A DNA stretch of 64,000 nt from Escherichia coli (GTDB taxonomy: Bacteria > Pseudomonadota > Gammaproteobacteria > Enterobacterales > Enterobacteriaceae). The notes under the pieces are model-generated. The model had not been told where the DNA came from. It ran no database searches and was given only the letters and a program-made list of their open reading frames with translations. The first letter of the stretch is position 1, and the number at the start of each line of letters is the position of its first letter. Of this stretch, positions 34,354-56,644 are shown in pieces. The stretch lies in assembly GCF_048403405.1 (NCBI RefSeq), contig NZ_CP183129.1. The stretch is one strand, 5' to 3'. The position numbers were made by a program, and so were the translations under genes.

Positions 34354-35460
34354 ATGTCTAAAACACGCGATGATTTCAGCTCAAAAACTGTAAGAGCTCT
34401 AGCACTACGGGCTGGTTATAGGTGCTCATTCCCCGGTTGTAATCAGCTTACAGTTGGCCCCAGTGATGAATCCTTAACATCTATCACAAATATTGGGGTA
34501 GCTGCGCACATTCATGCCGCAGCTCCTGGGCCATTAGCAAGACGATATGATCCTAATCAAACACCAGATGAAAGGAAAGATATAAATAATGGCATCTGGA
34601 TGTGTGTTAATCACAGCGTTGAAATTGATAGAGATGAAATTAGATATACAGCAGAAATTCTTAAAGAAATGAAGAAAGCCCACGAAGAAGAGATTAAAAA
34701 AGAGGTGAGCAATGGTTCTTCATCAACCAAACATAATGATTTCATTGCAATAGGTATAGACATTATCGTTTTCGGAGAGCTTACCGGAATCTCAACCAAT
34801 GAGTGGACTATAAAATTTGCAAACTTCTTTACTGGCGATTTATCTAAGTTAATATCTTTCAACGAAAGATTCCACTCCATCCCTACCGAAGAAAAATTTA
34901 TTCTAGTTAATCAACTTGGTGAGGGGCGTTTGTTATCAGCACCAATAAAATTAAATAAATTACCAGATAGCTATGAAGTAATCGTCCCTGTTGAAATAGA
35001 CACTCCGCGCATCAATTGCAATAGCCTCCCAATGGATTTAGATATTTTCACGACAGGCGATTTATTTGTAAATAGTTCTGGTGATATAGCTACGATATCG
35101 GGGTTTGAAGCTTTACCACAAAAAATATATACTTCCCTTTCCACCATTAGAGGTGAGATTTATTCCCATCCAACATTGGGTTCCAGAATAAGACAGTTCT
35201 TCCATGACTTTGAAGGAACAATGTGGCTAGACAAATTAGTTAAATTAGAAGTTATACGCTTATCTTGTATACCAATTTTTGATTCAATCACAAAAAACAA
35301 ATACACTCCATTACATTGTGTAAAAAATGTCAAAAATATTCGGGTGATACCAACTGAATATAAAGATAGCAAATTACCTATTGAGTTCACCCTTGATATT
35401 GAAGGTTTCGGCATCTGGTCCAAAGAAATAAGTGTTTTCTCACCTAAATACGATGAATAA
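34354..35460 (+). CDS. accessory (moron) protein with N-terminal HNH-nuclease-like motif; function unknown
   Basis: ORF 34318..35460 (TTG); probable ATG start 34354 with AAAGG SD. Motif RCSFPGC...AAHIHAAAPG...NNGIWMCVNHSVEID fits the HNH pattern; AT-rich; at the P2 Z/fun variable position. Confidence 0.6.
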   Translation: MSKTRDDFSSKTVRALALRAGYRCSFPGCNQLTVGPSDESLTSITNIGVAAHIHAAAPGPLARRYDPNQTPDERKDINNGIWMCVNHSVEIDRDEIRYTAEILKEMKKAHEEEIKKEVSNGSSSTKHNDFIAIGIDIIVFGELTGISTNEWTIKFANFFTGDLSKLISFNERFHSIPTEEKFILVNQLGEGRLLSAPIKLNKLPDSYEVIVPVEIDTPRINCNSLPMDLDIFTTGDLFVNSSGDIATISGFEALPQKIYTSLSTIRGEIYSHPTLGSRIRQFFHDFEGTMWLDKLVKLEVIRLSCIPIFDSITKNKYTPLHCVKNVKNIRVIPTEYKDSKLPIEFTLDIEGFGIWSKEISVFSPKYDE

Positions 35461-35983: not shown

Positions 35984-37045
35984 TCAGAATTTGACAGTAG
36001 GAACGGTTGGCCAGATTCTAGCAATAGACTTAAACATAGTCTCCACAATATATTCGAGAACCTCATCATCAGGCTCTTTCATTAATGCTTTTACTTTATT
36101 TATTCTATCCTGAAGTGAAGGGTGAGATTTTGAAAAACCCCAGTTGTTTTTACCTAACATAGTAACGCTGAATAATGCACAGTATATAGAAAGTCTTCTT
36201 TTCCTGCTCACCAACACACGGTCATACATAGACTCTTCACAGTAATTATCTATATGGTCAAGGATGAATTTATTTGCAAACTCATCACATGAGAACTCTT
36301 CATTATGAGCTTGTTCTTGTGTGAATTCATTCATATCATAACTGGTACCTTCCTGCTGATGAATGATATGTCGGACTTCATGCAAAAATGCCCAAGCAGC
36401 AGCAATAATTGCTAATTCAGCTGTTGCTCTTTTAACTGGTTCGATTTTACTGTCAGGCATGGTGCCAGGTTCAGGAATTCCTATTGGTAGTGGTTTTTCA
36501 TCCGGTACCTCATCTTTAGCCGTGTTTTCAAAAGCGCAGATTAACTGTTCAAAGTTTACGAAGTCTGCCGAACTGAAATCAGCAAGTTCTTCCTGTAGCT
36601 CCTCGAGTAAAACATGTAATTCTGACTCGGTTGAGACTAATGATATTTTCTTTGAGTCAAAAAGATCTAAAATAGAATCCCTTTTATCGATAATGTCTTC
36701 AATTTTTTTATTTTGCTCAGTGTTTATTGCTTCGTAGCCCGCCATTGCAGCAAATGTTCCTATCCAGAACGTGCGCAAAACACGATGATTGAAGCGGATA
36801 AATCGATACATCCCCGCATCAAAAATAAATTTACCGTCTGTATGATTATCGCTATGATTTTGGAAGGTCATGTTAAATTTAGACCAGAACTCATCCAGTT
36901 CATTCTGACGCTCTGGAATAGAGGCTAAAAACATTTTTCTTACGCTGTCCTGAACTGTTTTATCTTCATTATGCTCTTCAAACATTTGCTCACCTATATT
37001 GCTGTTAATTTTATCTAATGATGAACCGAGTGGGTTGTTTACCAA
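35984..37045 (-). CDS. accessory (moron) protein with HEXXH motif (putative zinc metallopeptidase-like); function unknown
   Basis: ORF starts at TTG 37045; more likely ATG 36985 with AGGTGA SD. Motif FLHEVRHIIH; AT-rich; convergent with the HNH gene. Confidence 0.5.
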   Translation of the reverse strand: MVNNPLGSSLDKINSNIGEQMFEEHNEDKTVQDSVRKMFLASIPERQNELDEFWSKFNMTFQNHSDNHTDGKFIFDAGMYRFIRFNHRVLRTFWIGTFAAMAGYEAINTEQNKKIEDIIDKRDSILDLFDSKKISLVSTESELHVLLEELQEELADFSSADFVNFEQLICAFENTAKDEVPDEKPLPIGIPEPGTMPDSKIEPVKRATAELAIIAAAWAFLHEVRHIIHQQEGTSYDMNEFTQEQAHNEEFSCDEFANKFILDHIDNYCEESMYDRVLVSRKRRLSIYCALFSVTMLGKNNWGFSKSHPSLQDRINKVKALMKEPDDEVLEYIVETMFKSIARIWPTVPTVKF

Positions 37046-37248: not shown

Positions 37249-37776
37249 TTATTGCGGCATTTCCGGCCATTCGGGATTTGCAGGATCCACACGACTGACC
37301 AGAACGCTGTAGCGTTCCCATGCTTCCAGTCGGCTGCGTTCCTCATCCGTCGCCATATTCAGCCTGACAGCGCGTTCCAGCGGCAAAATCACGGATTCAG
37401 CTTCGGAAAGTAAAGCTGCCTTTTGTGATTCTGCCTGTTGCTCCTGTTCATCTGCCGTATAAATCCGCTTAATCACGGCACCATCCTTAAACATCCATTT
37501 ACCTGAGTCATCAGCACGTCGGTTGGAGGTAATATCAGGAACCTCGACAACGCTGAAACCTTCAGGGTTAAGCGTTGAAGCATCTCTGGTGATGCCGACA
37601 ATTATATTATTCTCGTCGTAAACAATCTTTATCGTGTCTTCCTGAAAATTACTTACTTCCTCATACCAGTTTTTTCCCTCTTCGGACCATAACCAGATAA
37701 CATCAAAATTTTTTGTCAGTTGATATTGGGCAACAGTTTTTGGATTACCCGCAGTAATATTTTTTAAATGCTGCAT
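37249..37776 (-). CDS. G: tail fiber assembly protein G
   Basis: 175-aa ORF; matches P2 G. Confidence 0.88.
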
Positions 37777-37779
37777 AAA

Positions 37780-39825
37780 TTACACCTGTGCGACGTTATA
37801 CCATGTGCCATTGATGTATTTTTGTATTGGCCTGAATACTGCGGGGTCATCACCATCGACTTCACCGACAATACCAAGCCCGGTAATTACGTGCCCTGCT
37901 TTCTCATACATCACCCCTTTCTGCATGGTCTGGACAACACGTGTGCCAAGTCTGATATCTCTCACATAGCGGGAATCAAAGTTACCGTAATCCGAGGGAT
38001 TAACACGCCCCGTAATATTTATGGTCTTATTACTTTGAATGCTTCCGGAAACAAAGCGCATAACATGGACGTTATTAGCATAAACATCCAGATTACCATC
38101 GCCATTTTGTTTAAATCCGGTGTCGTTATCACCAAGAACAATAGAGTTCCCACCCAACGCGTTATTCGTGCCAAGTGCCAGCCCGCCATCAATCCTGGCA
38201 CCATTACCAACAGACACAACTCCTGTTCTTAAGTTGATGCCGAATGGCCTTAATGGCCCAATATCTCCATTTTCACCCTCATTTTCTCGTGTAGGAATGA
38301 TATACAGGTTTTCTTCAGAACGGCGAAAAATAGCACCAAAAGATGAATTAAATATCCTCAGCGCATTGACTGTAGATATTTTTACTTCACTGCTGAAAAG
38401 GGCTTTAACAAGAACATACAGAGCATCCCATTTAAGATTCATCAGGTCTTTTGTTGTGGTGCTCTGGCGACTTCTCCATTTGAAATATTCATTGCCGTTA
38501 TCCCCCGTTTCAAACCACATGTATGAATCAGTGTCACCATCGGCATCATTTTTAAATCCAATCTTCGCCCAGTCAGTATTTCGAATCCAGGCAAGGATTG
38601 AGTCGTTTTCAAAAGTAAGTCCACCGGACAAGGTATCGCCATTTTTTTGCACGGCGTTCCCGGCTCGGTTTACCGTTTCCTGTAAACCGAGATATTCGAT
38701 AACGGCGGCAACGGTCGATTTAGCCAGAATATCCCGCCCGACTTTTGTCAGGGTCGCCAGGCTGGCAACATCATTCCCCGTAAAATACGGAAACCTGTCT
38801 GCCGCAGTAGCAAGCCCCGCCAGCGCCGTCAAAGTGGCATCTTTCGGTTGCTTACCCGCAAGCGCATTAGTCATGGTGGTAGCAAAATTCGGGTCATTGC
38901 CCAGCGCCGCCGCCAGCTCGTTCAGCGTATTCAGTGCGTCAGGCGACGAGTCTACAAGGGCGGCAATCGCGGCCATAACGAAAGCCGTGTTTGCGATCTG
39001 AGTATTATTCGTTCCCTGTCGCGCAGTTGGCGTCGTTGGCGTTCCGGTCAGTGCAGGGCTGTTTAATGGCGCTTTCTTGTTCGTTTCATCCATTACCGTC
39101 TTAACGGCTTTTGGTGTTGCGGCGAGCGTTTCAGACGTGCTGTTGGTCGCACTACTGAGCTGGACAAGGCCTTTTCGCGCTATGGTGGCGTCCTGTGCGG
39201 TATATTTCCCGTTAGCAAGGTCATACGCGGCCTTTACCGCTTTCGGCGTTGCGGCCAGTGTTTCAGACGTGCTGTTGGTCGCACTGCTTAACTGAGTAAA
39301 ACCTTTTGCGGTCAGCGAGGCGTCAGGGTGACGTCGTGACTGTTCATGTTCTGCAATTTTGTCATCAACGTAATCCTGCGTTGCCATCACCGTTGTGGTG
39401 TCAATGGTCAGCTCCACTGAGGCCACACTGCTGACGATGATGACCATGCGGCAGGTCTGCGAACGCCCTGAGCCTTCGGCAAGGGCTGGCTTATAACTTT
39501 CGGCCATGTTCGCCACGGCAATTAGCGTTCCCGCATCATCGTACAGGCCAAGTTCACGCATCCAGAAACCGCCCACCTCCGGCGGAATAACCAGCTCTGC
39601 GATAATATAATTACTGTTTCGTTTGTCCTGGCTGATTTTGTTCAGCGCATGTCGCCAGACTTCGTGGATAAGCCCGGTCTGTCCGGCATCCGGGACAGGC
39701 AATTTACCACCGCCATCCCCGACGGCCATCGTGGTAATGTTGACCTTCCGCCCTCCCGGTGCGGTTGCCGCTGCCAGCTTTGCTGCACCGGCAGTGGTGA
39801 TAACGGTTTTGAATTTTGTGCTCAT
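37780..39825 (-). CDS. H: tail fiber protein H
   Basis: 681-aa ORF; conserved N-terminus MSTKFKTVITTAGAAKLAAA; internal repeat QLSSATNSTSETLAATPKAVK. Confidence 0.9.
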   Translation of the reverse strand: MSTKFKTVITTAGAAKLAAATAPGGRKVNITTMAVGDGGGKLPVPDAGQTGLIHEVWRHALNKISQDKRNSNYIIAELVIPPEVGGFWMRELGLYDDAGTLIAVANMAESYKPALAEGSGRSQTCRMVIIVSSVASVELTIDTTTVMATQDYVDDKIAEHEQSRRHPDASLTAKGFTQLSSATNSTSETLAATPKAVKAAYDLANGKYTAQDATIARKGLVQLSSATNSTSETLAATPKAVKTVMDETNKKAPLNSPALTGTPTTPTARQGTNNTQIANTAFVMAAIAALVDSSPDALNTLNELAAALGNDPNFATTMTNALAGKQPKDATLTALAGLATAADRFPYFTGNDVASLATLTKVGRDILAKSTVAAVIEYLGLQETVNRAGNAVQKNGDTLSGGLTFENDSILAWIRNTDWAKIGFKNDADGDTDSYMWFETGDNGNEYFKWRSRQSTTTKDLMNLKWDALYVLVKALFSSEVKISTVNALRIFNSSFGAIFRRSEENLYIIPTRENEGENGDIGPLRPFGINLRTGVVSVGNGARIDGGLALGTNNALGGNSIVLGDNDTGFKQNGDGNLDVYANNVHVMRFVSGSIQSNKTINITGRVNPSDYGNFDSRYVRDIRLGTRVVQTMQKGVMYEKAGHVITGLGIVGEVDGDDPAVFRPIQKYINGTWYNVAQV
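39101..39311. repeat. imperfect direct repeat (about 80 bp, two copies) inside tail fiber gene H
   Basis: Copies at 39101-39179 and 39233-39311 share an identical 26-nt core GTTTCAGACGTGCTGTTGGTCGCACT. Confidence 0.8.
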
Positions 39826-39835
39826 TATTCCTCAC

Positions 39836-40366
39836 TTATCCGGGGTAAACCGTAATTACATCGCCGTCATAAGCCACACCACCGACGAACAGGTAGCCGG
39901 GAATGTCCCGGGTAATGTTCAGGCCAATAAGGTGGCGGCTTGCAGGTTTGGCATCAGCAATCAGCCGTTCCATTTCCTGATACATTGCCTCTGTGATACC
40001 GCTTTCCAGTACACCAATATCAAGCCGGAAGGTGCCGGGCGGGTCACTGGTTTCCCACCACTCCGTCACGTTGATGAGATAGCCCAGCGGCTCCACCACA
40101 CGCCGGATTGCACCTATAGTGCCTTTATGACAGTGGATGAAATAGGCATCGCGAATAACGGCGCGTTTGGTCGCTTCCGGCCACTTTTCATCCCATCTGT
40201 CGACCGAAAACGCCCACGCCAGCCACGGCAGCAGATTTGCCGGGCAGGTGTCCGGGTTCCACAGCTCACGAATACTGACCGGCGTTTTTTCAATTTCCGC
40301 ACAGGCTTTTGCAGCGGCGACTTCAAGCGGTGATGAGCCGGTCGGCAGCAGGCGCGAATCACTCAT
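39836..40366 (-). CDS. I: baseplate assembly protein I
   Basis: 176-aa ORF; P2 order. Confidence 0.85.
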   Translation of the reverse strand: MSDSRLLPTGSSPLEVAAAKACAEIEKTPVSIRELWNPDTCPANLLPWLAWAFSVDRWDEKWPEATKRAVIRDAYFIHCHKGTIGAIRRVVEPLGYLINVTEWWETSDPPGTFRLDIGVLESGITEAMYQEMERLIADAKPASRHLIGLNITRDIPGYLFVGGVAYDGDVITVYPG

Positions 40367-42340: not shown

Positions 42341-43126
42341 ATGGTCAGCTATAATGTGACTAATGTGTGGGGGCTAATCGTTTTTTTCCTTTGTAGCTTT
42401 GCAGTATTAGCATTTTTTAGCTTTGGTAAAAGTAACCTTATGAGGCTTATTGCACATTATTTCAATTTTGGATATTCAGACAAAAAATTAAAAAGACTTG
42501 ACCGCGAGTGGCGCGACATTCAACTATTTAAAATAATTAATGGAATCAATGTATCAGGCATTGAAAATGTGAGAATGATACAGCAGGGACTGATTGATGG
42601 AAAACTAAAAACATCGTATTTTTTCCTTACTCGCATCTGGGGTGACATAACAAAACCACCACACATAATTAAAACAATAATTGTAATTCTGGCCAGTATT
42701 TTTTACATTCTCCTCGCATGTTACATACACAACGAACAATCCGTTATAGTAAGGGATGCCATAGGCATACCATATAAAAACATGATGTACTATGTTTATA
42801 GTGACAAAGTTCTTTTATCCTTCAAAAATAAAGCAGTTGAATTTAATAAAACTTATAGCCTTGCCGATTGCAAGAGACTGCAAAACGTATTTATAAAAGA
42901 CACACTTCCTGAGATCGCCTGCAATAAGCTCTTACAGCTAAACGAGGAGGACTCCGAATGGTTAAGCCAGGAGATTAAAGATAATAACAGTCACAAAAAA
43001 GCATTATTAATACTATCCCTCGTCTATTTCACTTCAGGTCTGGTTATATTCCTGTCATATACAAAATTCTTTTACGCCAATAAGAAGGTTTTAGAATACA
43101 AAGCATCAAATAAAAATCACTCATAA
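42341..43126 (+). CDS. accessory membrane protein (3 predicted TM helices), function unknown
   Basis: 261-aa ORF with strong SD AAGGAGAG; very AT-rich; opposite strand to flanking V and S; at the P2 orf30 position. Confidence 0.6.
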   Translation: MVSYNVTNVWGLIVFFLCSFAVLAFFSFGKSNLMRLIAHYFNFGYSDKKLKRLDREWRDIQLFKIINGINVSGIENVRMIQQGLIDGKLKTSYFFLTRIWGDITKPPHIIKTIIVILASIFYILLACYIHNEQSVIVRDAIGIPYKNMMYYVYSDKVLLSFKNKAVEFNKTYSLADCKRLQNVFIKDTLPEIACNKLLQLNEEDSEWLSQEIKDNNSHKKALLILSLVYFTSGLVIFLSYTKFFYANKKVLEYKASNKNHS

Positions 43127-52405: not shown

Positions 52406-53113
52406 CTATATATACTTCCTTTTTACTCTACTTAATTCTATCACTGATGAGGAGTGACAAAATGACAAATTAATAGTATCGATATAATCCAAAATTTGAC
52501 TCTCAACCTCAATAAAAATATTTTTGGGCCCATTACTAATCGATATACCGATTTCATCCAAAACAGCCATCATTTTTCTCTGATGAGTTTTATATTTATA
52601 GTCTTTATTTTCCTCTGTAATATGTGCATTGGCTTCCTCAATAACACATTTGATTCTAGATATTATTTCTAGATAATCTCTCGAAACAGATATATCACCG
52701 CCTTGCGCTTCAGGGAACATAACCCTATACCATCTAAAAAAATTAACTTTCTCTGGATAGATGCTACTTCTTTTAGTTAACTCAGCACTTGCAAATTCTC
52801 TAAACATCGTCAGATGACTAGTGTAATTACTATTATTATTATTTTTAACTCCAGCGTTATATGTCATCAAAGCAATCATAACACCAAAAACGGTAACAAA
52901 AGTTGTTATAAGCCATCCAAACGCCTGAAAATACATTACTATACCAGATGTTTTTTCCGCAAAAAATTTTAAGCACTGGCTATCGAAGCATATATCACGC
53001 TCATATAGCTTTTCATTCTGAATAGTTTCAAAAAGAGAAATTAGCGAAAAAATCAAAAAAAGAGCTGACGACACACCGACAATATATTTGAGAAGTCTAA
53101 TATTTGCATTCAT
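52406..53113 (-). CDS. 2-TM membrane protein, translationally coupled to the upstream reverse transcriptase (candidate effector)
   Basis: 235 aa; start ATG overlaps the RT stop (ATGA at 53113-53110); two N-terminal hydrophobic helices; AT-rich. Confidence 0.6.
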   Translation of the reverse strand: MNANIRLLKYIVGVSSALFLIFSLISLFETIQNEKLYERDICFDSQCLKFFAEKTSGIVMYFQAFGWLITTFVTVFGVMIALMTYNAGVKNNNNSNYTSHLTMFREFASAELTKRSSIYPEKVNFFRWYRVMFPEAQGGDISVSRDYLEIISRIKCVIEEANAHITEENKDYKYKTHQRKMMAVLDEIGISISNGPKNIFIEVESQILDYIDTINLSFCHSSSVIELSRVKRKYI

Positions 53114-54384
53114 AATGGTTTTAAAGATGCCAATCTAGATTTAAAACACTCCAGTTTTTCTTTAAATGATTCAGAGCGAGTAAGAATAATCATCTTATAT
53201 CTCGTCAAATCATATTTTCTTTTATACCAATGTTTATTTTGATTACCTTTCGAATACGACAACTCTAAACTTTTTATAGCTGCATCAATCACAGCAACAT
53301 CTCTTTTAGATGGCATCGGTTTTATTGCCTGCAACTGTTTCTTGAATGATTCATATTTTTCATGCCCAACACGGCCAAGCTTATTCACTCTCCCCATACA
53401 TCTATTGAATTCTTTTCTGTATGCAACACTTGTTTTTGTGTTATTTTTTGCCGCCAGTAATTTCAAATTATGTATAGATGCCCTGATTCTTTTGACTTCA
53501 TCGGATGGTAGTCGAGGTGAGTCATAGTCAACTCTTAAACCATGTACTTTTATAGGTTCAGATGAACAGTGAAATATTTTTGTTTTGTGCTTATTTATCG
53601 GCAAGTCATGCTCAGAAAGCATCCTCTCTATATGGCTTTGCATTTGAGAAAAATCATAATTACTTATTTTAGATGACACGGTAATATCATCTACCAAACG
53701 CGTATAAACAAGTCCTTTCCTCTGCGCACGTCTTACCACATCCCCTTCAACAGCGAATAAACACAAAGTTGCTATATAGCTTGATGTTAAGGCCCCCTGT
53801 ACGACAAAATCATCCTTAGTACATATATCCACCAAGTATTCAAGAGCCTCATCCTTAATATGCAATATCTCCTCAAACACGCTCCTAACCAGATCTCTAT
53901 GGATATTATCGAAAAAATTACTTATATCCACCTTGAGAACTGTTTTTGCTCCACAATGAGCCTTTGCACATGAAACATAGTCACGTTTGACATTAGAATT
54001 TAAAACATCATTTTTACTGGGAACTGAACCAAACAAAAATGAAGGAAAAACAACCAATTCCTTAAAAATACGTTTATTAATTCTACTCTGTAATAATCTC
54101 ATTTTAGGATGTAGGGAGTAGACAATCCGTTTGCTTCCGTCAATTTTGGGAATTTCTTTTAGAGTATATTTCTCATCTAATGATAATTCTGCAATAGCTT
54201 TAAGCTCTTCAACAGAAATCGATAAAGCCTTTGACAACTTTTCAAGTGTTGTGATAGGAGCATTGGATTTGCTGTATGGTTTAAATTTATCCATAAACAT
54301 ACCATTCAAATTCAAAGTTACGTACGGTCTTCCCATACTCAAGGGTGGAACAGCAGAGATGCTTACATCAACAATTGTCAGCAA
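53110..54384 (-). CDS. retron-type reverse transcriptase with about 100-aa C-terminal extension
   Basis: RT motifs IPKIDGSKRIVY, CAKAHCGAKTVLKVDISNFFDNI, QGALTSSYIATLCL, YTRLVDDITV (YxDD), IKVHGL. Track start is TTG 54384; in-frame ATGs at 54336, 54300, 54294. Confidence 0.75.
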   Translation of the reverse strand: MLTIVDVSISAVPPLSMGRPYVTLNLNGMFMDKFKPYSKSNAPITTLEKLSKALSISVEELKAIAELSLDEKYTLKEIPKIDGSKRIVYSLHPKMRLLQSRINKRIFKELVVFPSFLFGSVPSKNDVLNSNVKRDYVSCAKAHCGAKTVLKVDISNFFDNIHRDLVRSVFEEILHIKDEALEYLVDICTKDDFVVQGALTSSYIATLCLFAVEGDVVRRAQRKGLVYTRLVDDITVSSKISNYDFSQMQSHIERMLSEHDLPINKHKTKIFHCSSEPIKVHGLRVDYDSPRLPSDEVKRIRASIHNLKLLAAKNNTKTSVAYRKEFNRCMGRVNKLGRVGHEKYESFKKQLQAIKPMPSKRDVAVIDAAIKSLELSYSKGNQNKHWYKRKYDLTRYKMIILTRSESFKEKLECFKSRLASLKPL

Positions 54385-54805: not shown

Positions 54806-56644
54806 TTAATCAGCCAGATAAGGTTCAACTTTATCTTCCCATACACTAAATAAAGGCAAACAAGTTAAATAAAAGATAAAGACACAGGCAAAAACTGAAG
54901 TTGGTTGATAACAATGATTTACAGTATACCTGCCATGAGCCATCGTGTGTCTAATTGCAGCACCACCTTTCATATTGAACAATAAATCCATAGTCAATAC
55001 ATGATCACTATCAAAAACACCTTCCATTTCACTCCTATAATTTGCAAGCATTTGAGATAGGCTAGTAGCCTCCTCAAAAAGCGACACATCTATTTTCGTT
55101 GTTTCTTTTCTTCTTAATTCTAAAATCCATCTAATTGAATTCTCCAATTGCGGCAATAACAAATAACAGGCAGACACATAATCTCCCTGCCAAAGCTTAT
55201 AAAACCCCAAAGAAAATATTTCTGCATACCCAGGTGGAACAAATGCACTTTGTTGTGAGATTGGGTCAAATGTATTTTCATTTAATGAATACCTAGCCAA
55301 CACACTTTGCCTAACGACTTCAAACTCACCACAAACATAGACCTGATGCTCAATGTTACTAGTTCTTAAATAATTTGCACAAGCATCATTTAAACTTATA
55401 TCCCCCGCAGGATCCAAAGGTGAACGACTTGCTACAACGCGCCCTCTATCATCATAAACAACCGTTTCACTCATATTAAGAAAAAAATGTTTTTTAGCAT
55501 CGGAACGAGCTCTTTCCATAATTTCACTGGCACTTACAATCTTAAATCTAGCAATTAAAGTTTTAATTACCCTTGAGAAATCCAATTGATTATAAACATG
55601 CTCTTTCTGAGCGATAACATCACTAAGATCCATTGGTATTGCAAAGAAGTGCATTTCATCATTGATTTGATCTCGAATAGAATTCAATTCCTCTCTAATC
55701 TTTTTAATTTCTTCATTCATTCCACCAATTGCTCTAAATTCGCCAAGAGCAACTCTTAACCAATGAGCCTTCAATATTGAAGATGAAGACTGTTCAAATT
55801 GAGCCAATGTTATTTCTGACGCTTTAATTCTGCACCGTCTTCCTTGCTCTTCCATATCGTTTTTAACATATAATTCAGACGCAAAATAAAACAATTTTTT
55901 CACTGCATCAAAATAAGACGCTCCACAATGCTCATCAGCTATCTTTTCTGCATTCTCAGCCAATTGCAAGGGACACAATAAATTATTCTTATAAAGAATT
56001 TCAGAAACTCTTAATACACCGGTGAATATACCAGAGTCTATTAATACATGATATAACCTTAATGTCGAATCAACTATCCCCCCTTGTAGTTGTTTTTTCC
56101 TGCCAATAAGCATGCGCGATATTGCGATACCTCTATCCAAGCAGTCAACAACATCAAAAATATGGATATCACCTGACTCTTGTTTTTCTATTAAAGTATC
56201 GCAAGCATCATTAACCATTAGAGAATATGACTCTATTGCTTTATTGGCAGAGTCTATATCCTTACGGTTATTTATCCATAAAACATCACACACCCTAGAT
56301 ATAATATAAGGATTATCGGAGTTTTCTTTAATACAAGTTAATATTGTTGAAAAACTCTCCTTATAATCTGAAGGCCTATAGCCCCTCTCAGGATAGAGAA
56401 TGATTTTTGGCTCAAAACCGATAATATCACCAGACCTAGAAAATTTAAAATTAAACAACGCACGTAATAAATAGCAAAGCCGCCAAGAACTTACATCGTT
56501 TTTTAGCTTGTAAGATGACAACAACTGAACAAAATAAGACTCCATATCAAAATGAGAATAACTTCTTGGCGATGATAATATACTGGCGTATTCACTTTTT
56601 TTAAAATCATCAACTGAAATAGAAAAAACATCAAACTCGCTCAT
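54806..56644 (-). CDS. large accessory protein of unknown function (612 aa) at the P2 tin/old position
   Basis: ATG 56644 with strong SD AGGTGAGGA; no Walker A or other recognised motif except a possible Rx4H (IRHTMAHGRY) near the C-terminus; AT-rich. Confidence 0.6.
   Translation of the reverse strand: MSEFDVFSISVDDFKKSEYASILSSPRSYSHFDMESYFVQLLSSYKLKNDVSSWRLCYLLRALFNFKFSRSGDIIGFEPKIILYPERGYRPSDYKESFSTILTCIKENSDNPYIISRVCDVLWINNRKDIDSANKAIESYSLMVNDACDTLIEKQESGDIHIFDVVDCLDRGIAISRMLIGRKKQLQGGIVDSTLRLYHVLIDSGIFTGVLRVSEILYKNNLLCPLQLAENAEKIADEHCGASYFDAVKKLFYFASELYVKNDMEEQGRRCRIKASEITLAQFEQSSSSILKAHWLRVALGEFRAIGGMNEEIKKIREELNSIRDQINDEMHFFAIPMDLSDVIAQKEHVYNQLDFSRVIKTLIARFKIVSASEIMERARSDAKKHFFLNMSETVVYDDRGRVVASRSPLDPAGDISLNDACANYLRTSNIEHQVYVCGEFEVVRQSVLARYSLNENTFDPISQQSAFVPPGYAEIFSLGFYKLWQGDYVSACYLLLPQLENSIRWILELRRKETTKIDVSLFEEATSLSQMLANYRSEMEGVFDSDHVLTMDLLFNMKGGAAIRHTMAHGRYTVNHCYQPTSVFACVFIFYLTCLPLFSVWEDKVEPYLAD

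Follow-up and report, generated by a model that had tools for sequence, protein, structure and literature searches.

A PF03406 repeat pair in tail fibre gene H of a P2-like Escherichia coli prophage: an ancient tandem duplication that probably serves as a shaft module and recombination joint

Gene H, the tail fibre gene of a P2-like prophage in Escherichia coli GN02461, carries two tandem copies of the phage tail fibre repeat PF03406 (Phage_fiber_2, Pf2). We consider it highly probable that this ancient pair is a module of the proximal shaft of the fibre protein gpH and that it also acts as an in-frame recombination joint. The window analysed here is a 64,000-nucleotide stretch of contig NZ_CP183129.1 (RefSeq assembly GCF_048403405.1), to which all coordinates below refer. 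The feature is already known, being a catalogued Pfam family whose pair is present in reference phage P2, and the observation is correct but ordinary.

Mosaicism among tail fibre genes has been described since the early 1990s. Horizontal exchange of these genes is well documented, also between unrelated phages, and recombination of lambda with the stf regions of two defective prophages, Rac and Qin, has been obtained in experiments (PMC3945230). The Pf2 repeat, originally noticed in lambda Stf, occurs in many prophage fibres, and its structure and function have been described as unknown (PMC3368898).

Results

The prophage adjoins pflB in the chromosome of strain GN02461, a human blood isolate, from which the window differs at 8 positions in 40.5 kb. 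Gene H (37,780-39,825, minus strand) encodes a protein of 681 amino acids that RefSeq names 'phage tail protein' and that its open reading frame, Pfam matches and similarity to P2 identify as a tail fibre protein of the P2 gpH type. As H lies on the minus strand, the plus-strand letters are the reverse complement of its coding sequence. The Pfam matches are PF12571 (Phage_tail_fib) in the N-terminal domain (aa 1-151; 39,373-39,825, minus strand; E = 2.3e-58), PF03406 twice, and PF21446. The PF12571 N-terminus, matches to PHROG tail fibre families, and the neighbouring I, J and Caudo_TAP genes mark the product as a tail fibre, and its position in the late operon together with its N-terminal and central identity place it with P2 gpH. 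The gene order is V-W-J-I-H-G, with baseplate gene I (39,836-40,366, minus strand; Tail_P2_I, E = 6e-56) upstream of H and gene G (37,249-37,776, minus strand; Caudo_TAP, E = 4.8e-35; PHROG 136), which encodes the tail fibre assembly chaperone, directly downstream. The layout of AF063097 is the same, and the order W-J-I-H-G is common to the window and reference P2 (Peduovirus; AF063097/NC_001895). At the DNA level, H is 98.4% identical to its counterpart in phage P2_AC1 and 94.5% identical to P2 H across the aligned 80%.

The similarity to reference P2 is unevenly spread along the protein, with 92% identity overall, near-identity across aa 1-470, and differences in the distal third, from about aa 470, where the insertion in P2 is longer. 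P2 gpH and the window protein may therefore not share the same receptor specificity. The N-terminal domain is almost invariant across four aligned P2-type H proteins. The distal part (aa 375-680; 37,786-38,703, minus strand) is a homologue of the Mu S protein (PDB 5yvq/9ki1, 281 bits) and the presumed variable receptor-binding end, and here P2, P2SIAC10 and the window protein diverge from about aa 470. Distal H and gene G are the established determinants of host range. The initial annotation had repeated this view, and it fits the pattern found, in which close relatives differ in distal H and agree in the N-terminus and the repeats.

Several further genes were noticed in the prophage. Just downstream of G, in the position of the P2 Z/fun cargo, an ORF of 353 aa (35,984-37,045, minus strand) contains an HExxH motif (HEVRH). 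It is named 'phage exclusion protein Lit family protein' in RefSeq, matches Pfam Peptidase_U49 at 27.2 bits (cutoff 23.9), and is probably an anti-phage cargo gene. Between this Lit-like gene and the tail sheath gene lies an ORF of 368 aa on the opposite strand (34,354-35,460, plus strand), annotated as DUF2634 in RefSeq and scoring 19.7 bits to Pfam Sheath_initiator, below the cutoff of 32.9. An ORF of 261 aa (42,341-43,126), also on the opposite (plus) strand, is inserted between baseplate gene V and the tail genes upstream of it; it had no Pfam match, is annotated as hypothetical and likely occupies another cargo slot. In the interval from the portal gene to the replication gene, RefSeq annotates an effector membrane protein of the retron Ec48 family and a reverse transcriptase (52,406-54,294, minus strand), followed by a DUF7380 protein (54,806-56,644, minus strand). 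From the annotation, this stretch looks like a putative defence cargo region.

Within H, direct copies were found at 39,100-39,192 and 39,232-39,324, with starts 132 nt apart and 76% identity across 93 nt. An exact 26-nt core, GTTTCAGACGTGCTGTTGGTCGCACT, occurs at 39,260-39,285 in unit 1 and at 39,128-39,153 in unit 2 (both minus strand) and nowhere else in the window; no further copies with up to three mismatches were found across the whole window, and the core had no matches in 100 dinucleotide-preserving shuffles. The 21-residue peptide QLSSATNSTSETLAATPKAVK is present twice in identical form, at aa 178-198 (39,232-39,294) and aa 222-242 (39,100-39,162). The period of the tandem units is 132 nt, which equals 44 codons, and the duplication is therefore in frame. 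A duplicated module of about 80 bp with an identical core and a repeated peptide had been noted in the initial annotation. The duplication, core and peptide were all recovered, and the size has to be revised to the 132-nt period.

Unit 1 comprises aa 170-213 (SLTAKGFTQLSSATNSTSETLAATPKAVKAAYDLANGKYTAQDA; 39,187-39,318, minus strand) and contains the PF03406 stretch at 170-210, and unit 2 comprises aa 214-257 (TIARKGLVQLSSATNSTSETLAATPKAVKTVMDETNKKAPLNSP; 39,055-39,186, minus strand) with the second stretch. Over their full 132 nt the units share 62% DNA identity, with 50 positions differing, and 26 of 44 residues are the same. Tandem Repeats Finder reported no array in this region because the copies are too diverged, and no inverted repeats involving the units were found. 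An antisense ORF of 72 aa on the plus strand (39,077-39,295) spans the repeats and likewise has a repeated peptide (AFGVAASVSDVLLVALL). This peptide repeat arises mechanically from the H repeat on the other strand, and the ORF shows no sign of being a gene.

H scores 139 bits with PF03406 (cutoff 22; E = 3.3e-41) over two stretches, and the better of these (aa 170-210) spans positions 1-41 of the 42 in the profile. The consensus G-x-V-Q-L ... S-T-S-x-T-x-A-A-T-P-x-A-V-K, obtained from 69 diverse units, is matched by both window units; in it G6 and L10 never vary and A22 and A23 hardly do. A search with a single unit against 1.84 billion representative proteins (E ≤ 0.001) matched 1,755 representative clusters, with up to 18 units per protein, and the commonest spacing among the best 150 of these clusters was 44 residues. 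At the DNA level, the 501-nt repeat region has matches in 1,946 of the 5,426 complete E. coli genomes searched, with as many as 10 in a single genome, and the matches include stfR-type lambdoid side-fibre genes, which are 85-93% identical to the H repeat region. The motif of about 40 residues is shared between H and lambda Stf, the StfR-type prophage side fibres, and the collagen-like proteins of E. coli O157 prophages. Unlike H, the lambda Stf/StfR-type proteins, which are siphovirus side fibres, begin with a PF08400 domain (PMC3368898, Table 1), and some Stf/StfR/O157-type proteins have collagen or coiled-coil segments between their Pf2 units.

Reference P2 gpH has both PF03406 units at the same positions as the window protein, with 2 and 5 nucleotide differences per unit. 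Each window unit is thus nearer to its P2 counterpart than to its own neighbour (50-54 differences). The two-unit arrangement was also found in phages P2_AC1 and pro147, which were sequenced independently. Alignment with the H genes of other P2-like phages had been proposed as a check in the initial annotation, and P2, P2_AC1 and pro147 all share the two copies.

The number of units varies among other relatives. H genes with exactly 44 codons missing occur in P2 isolate OU784549 and in the complete E. coli chromosomes of TOE51, 222 and BKQWHE. In the one-unit alleles (L001, L005-L007), the 5' end has the markers of copy 1 and the 3' end those of copy 2, and the change from one to the other falls within the unit. 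As they have a near-identical junction and a private variant in common, these four alleles may descend from a single event. Close homologues of H have two to six units at a constant period of 44 residues, and in arrays of three to six units the internal units combine a copy-2 head with a copy-1 tail, which is the reciprocal product expected of unequal exchange. Both kinds of hybrid agree with the proposal, made from the window alone, that the repeats are substrates for recombination.

Among 120 viral contigs that were chosen because they contain the exact core, 94 of them with a P2-type N-terminus, there were 21 genes with one unit, 28 with two, 11 with three, 47 with four, 7 with five and 1 with six. 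Neighbouring units in long arrays are up to 99% identical in DNA and share exact runs of as much as 128 nt, compared with about 62% identity in two-unit genes, which indicates that the long arrays expanded recently. The P2-type H proteins with three to six units and a Mu/P1 S-like distal module ('SAYDNAEK...') have an N-terminal domain 96-97% identical to that of the window protein and a first unit identical to window unit 1. They differ from window H in their longer arrays, near-identical internal units and other distal module. Unit number also varies within a distal type, from one to two in the P2 type and from three to five in the Mu/P1 S-like type.

The array is a mosaic joint. A set of 131 representative proteins included 51 with the P2-type upstream context, which the array linked to 23 downstream classes, and the P2-type downstream context was linked to 5 upstream classes; these counts show a pattern and not a frequency, since the classes were made by crude ungapped clustering of 30-mers and the hit lists are biased to multi-unit proteins. 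Divergence among the proteins starts directly after ...ATPKAVK, and BLAST matches in E. coli genomes begin or end at the edges of conserved cores. The tail fibre shuffling that the initial annotation had envisaged is therefore visible at the array itself, where a P2-type N-terminus meets so many distal classes.

Exchanges among stf genes have been attributed mainly to fibre-associated invertases (PMC3945230), and the window was scanned for crossover sites for this reason. The sole match to the crossover consensus lies at 38,677-38,702 (minus strand), over H codons ~375-383. Read on the coding strand, this gix-like site (TTATCGAATATCTCGGTTTACAGGAA) is identical at 23 of 26 positions to Mu gixL at the annotated boundary of the G segment, and its distal half-site is intact. 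Homology to Mu S starts at H residue 375, at the site, which marks a second mosaic junction. The same site is also found in reference P2 H. No invertase gene or alternative fibre gene set was found in the annotated prophage and no second crossover site in the window, so that the gix-like site is a relic and not a switch. The segment between the array and this site (H residues 260-372; 38,710-39,048; ...ALVDSSPDALNTLNELAAALGNDPNFATT...) matches PDB 9d93, 'Tail collar fibers, gp4' (E = 3.8e-10), and is a further shared tail fibre module.

Mu S (gp49; PDB 5yvq, 9ki1, 8ju3) has one Pf2 unit at residues 113-153, a gix site shortly downstream of it where the constant part meets the variable part, and a distal part homologous to that of window H (the 281-bit match above). 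Mu also has a functional Gin invertase, a pair of inverted gix sites and the alternative S'/U' set. The window prophage, in contrast, has two units and one degenerate site, with neither an invertase nor an alternative set, and an invertase-controlled switch of the Mu G or P1 C type was rejected.

It could still be argued that the mosaic joints of H were made by invertases of the Gin/Cin/Hin family and that the repeats are purely structural, merely forming the last conserved segment, given that the relic site sits exactly where Mu S homology starts. We regard this as unlikely. The relic lies about 400 nt downstream of the array, and the junction there is at codon ~375 and not at codon ~242. There is no crossover-like site at the array, and only one in the window, and no invertase is annotated in the prophage. 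Inversion also cannot explain the in-register changes in unit number or the switch points within the units of the hybrids. The gix-like site accounts for the downstream junction and not for the behaviour of the array.

The divergence between the copies speaks to the age of the pair. Over the 21 codons that encode the identical peptide there are 9 nucleotide differences, all of them synonymous (pS 0.57, dS about 1.09, dN 0). Taken with the greater closeness of each copy to its P2 counterpart, these values show that the duplication is ancient, and neither recent nor an artefact. The synonymous sites are near saturation and the peptide is identical, which points to selection on the protein. Codon comparison therefore shows that the H duplication is ancient and that its peptide has been held by purifying selection acting on the protein and not on the DNA. 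The two window units have escaped recent homogenisation, and the pair is old and stable.

The 26-nt core spans eight unchanged codons and is marginally unusual in length (permutation test, P about 0.057). It is present in two units at only 4 of 120 related loci, and the second unit usually lacks an exact copy; in two-unit genes, the longest shared run has a median of 20 nt. Judged by these relatives, the identical core is a state of the window's lineage and not a conserved feature. A special status of the core, through gene conversion or a nucleotide-level constraint, was considered and is unsupported, given the permutation result and the scarcity of the core in the second units of relatives.

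Action of the repeat at the DNA or RNA level is very improbable, whether as the template-variable pair of a diversity-generating retroelement, as a regulatory site or through an RNA structure. A direct repeat with an exact 26-nt core would be compatible with such a role, as would the retron-type reverse transcriptase annotated in the prophage (53,110-54,294). The substitutions, however, are mixed (G>C, G>A, T>C, A>C, C>T, A>G, A>T) and not adenine-specific, and the reverse transcriptase is annotated as part of retron Ec48 and lies about 14 kb away. This is the sole reverse transcriptase, and a diversity-generating retroelement was rejected on the pattern of substitutions and this distance. Near-saturated synonymous sites beneath an unchanged peptide also argue against a nucleotide-level role, as do the lack of an inverted repeat at the units and the absence of the exact core from the second unit of most relatives.

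An origin of the repeat in a recent local duplication or in an assembly artefact, either of which would leave it without biological standing, can practically be dismissed: although there are only two copies and tail fibre genes are often fragmented in draft assemblies, their homologues being mostly 'partial', the copies differ at 50 of 132 positions with a dS of about 1.09 within an identical peptide, each is far nearer to its P2 counterpart than to its neighbour, and the pair is present in reference P2, in the independently sequenced P2_AC1 and pro147, and in complete chromosomes, which excludes the assembly artefact that the initial annotation had named as its refutation. The close H homologues in public protein sets are mostly labelled 'partial', which suggests that draft assemblies often break inside tail fibre genes.

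Discussion

We propose that each Pf2 unit would form a structural module of fixed length in the trimeric fibre shaft, and that the array would sit between an N-terminal domain that presumably binds the baseplate and a variable distal part that presumably binds the receptor. Attachment of the H N-terminal domain to the baseplate is suggested by analogy with Mu, in which the fibre N-terminus docks on a baseplate wedge protein (PMC11915804). The unit peptide, and in part its DNA, recurs within the gene and across the fibre genes of phages and prophages, and thus supplies homology at which recombinants stay in frame. Exchanges at the array are probably homologous. Comparison with relatives shows that unequal exchange between units changes the copy number, which runs from 1 to 6 in P2-type genes, and that exchange between different genes joins one N-terminus to many distal modules.

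Searched with a profile of 69 diverse units, the PDB yielded Mu S chains only. In the Mu cryo-EM study, the fibre N-terminus was modelled and a C-terminal crystal structure was fitted (PMC11915804), and the published Mu models are confined to these two ends of the fibre. An AlphaFold2 monomer of aa 140-302, built from an alignment of 26 rows, had a mean pLDDT of 49 and a pTM of 0.17, and a pseudo-trimer of three copies joined by 30-residue Gly/Ser linkers, with concatenated alignment rows, had a mean pLDDT of 27. The sole recurring feature of the pseudo-trimer was a short helix over ...PKAVKAAYDLA..., at a confidence too low to rely on. Neither AlphaFold model was usable, and the role as a shaft spacer is inferred.

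It is doubtful that the number of Pf2 units is an adaptive, rapidly adjustable setting of fibre length. Under such a scheme, unequal exchange would alter the shaft in steps of 44 residues to suit the distal module or the depth of O-antigen or capsule. The variation in unit number within distal types and the recent expansions could equally be neutral and inherited with the lineage.

In conclusion, the pair has little value as a discovery and some practical value. The end of the array, after ...ATPKAVK, would be a sensible in-frame fusion point for the engineering of P2 or tailocin fibres, since many distal modules are already attached there to the P2 N-terminus. The natural alleles with one to six units would offer a ready-made series for relating fibre length to adsorption.
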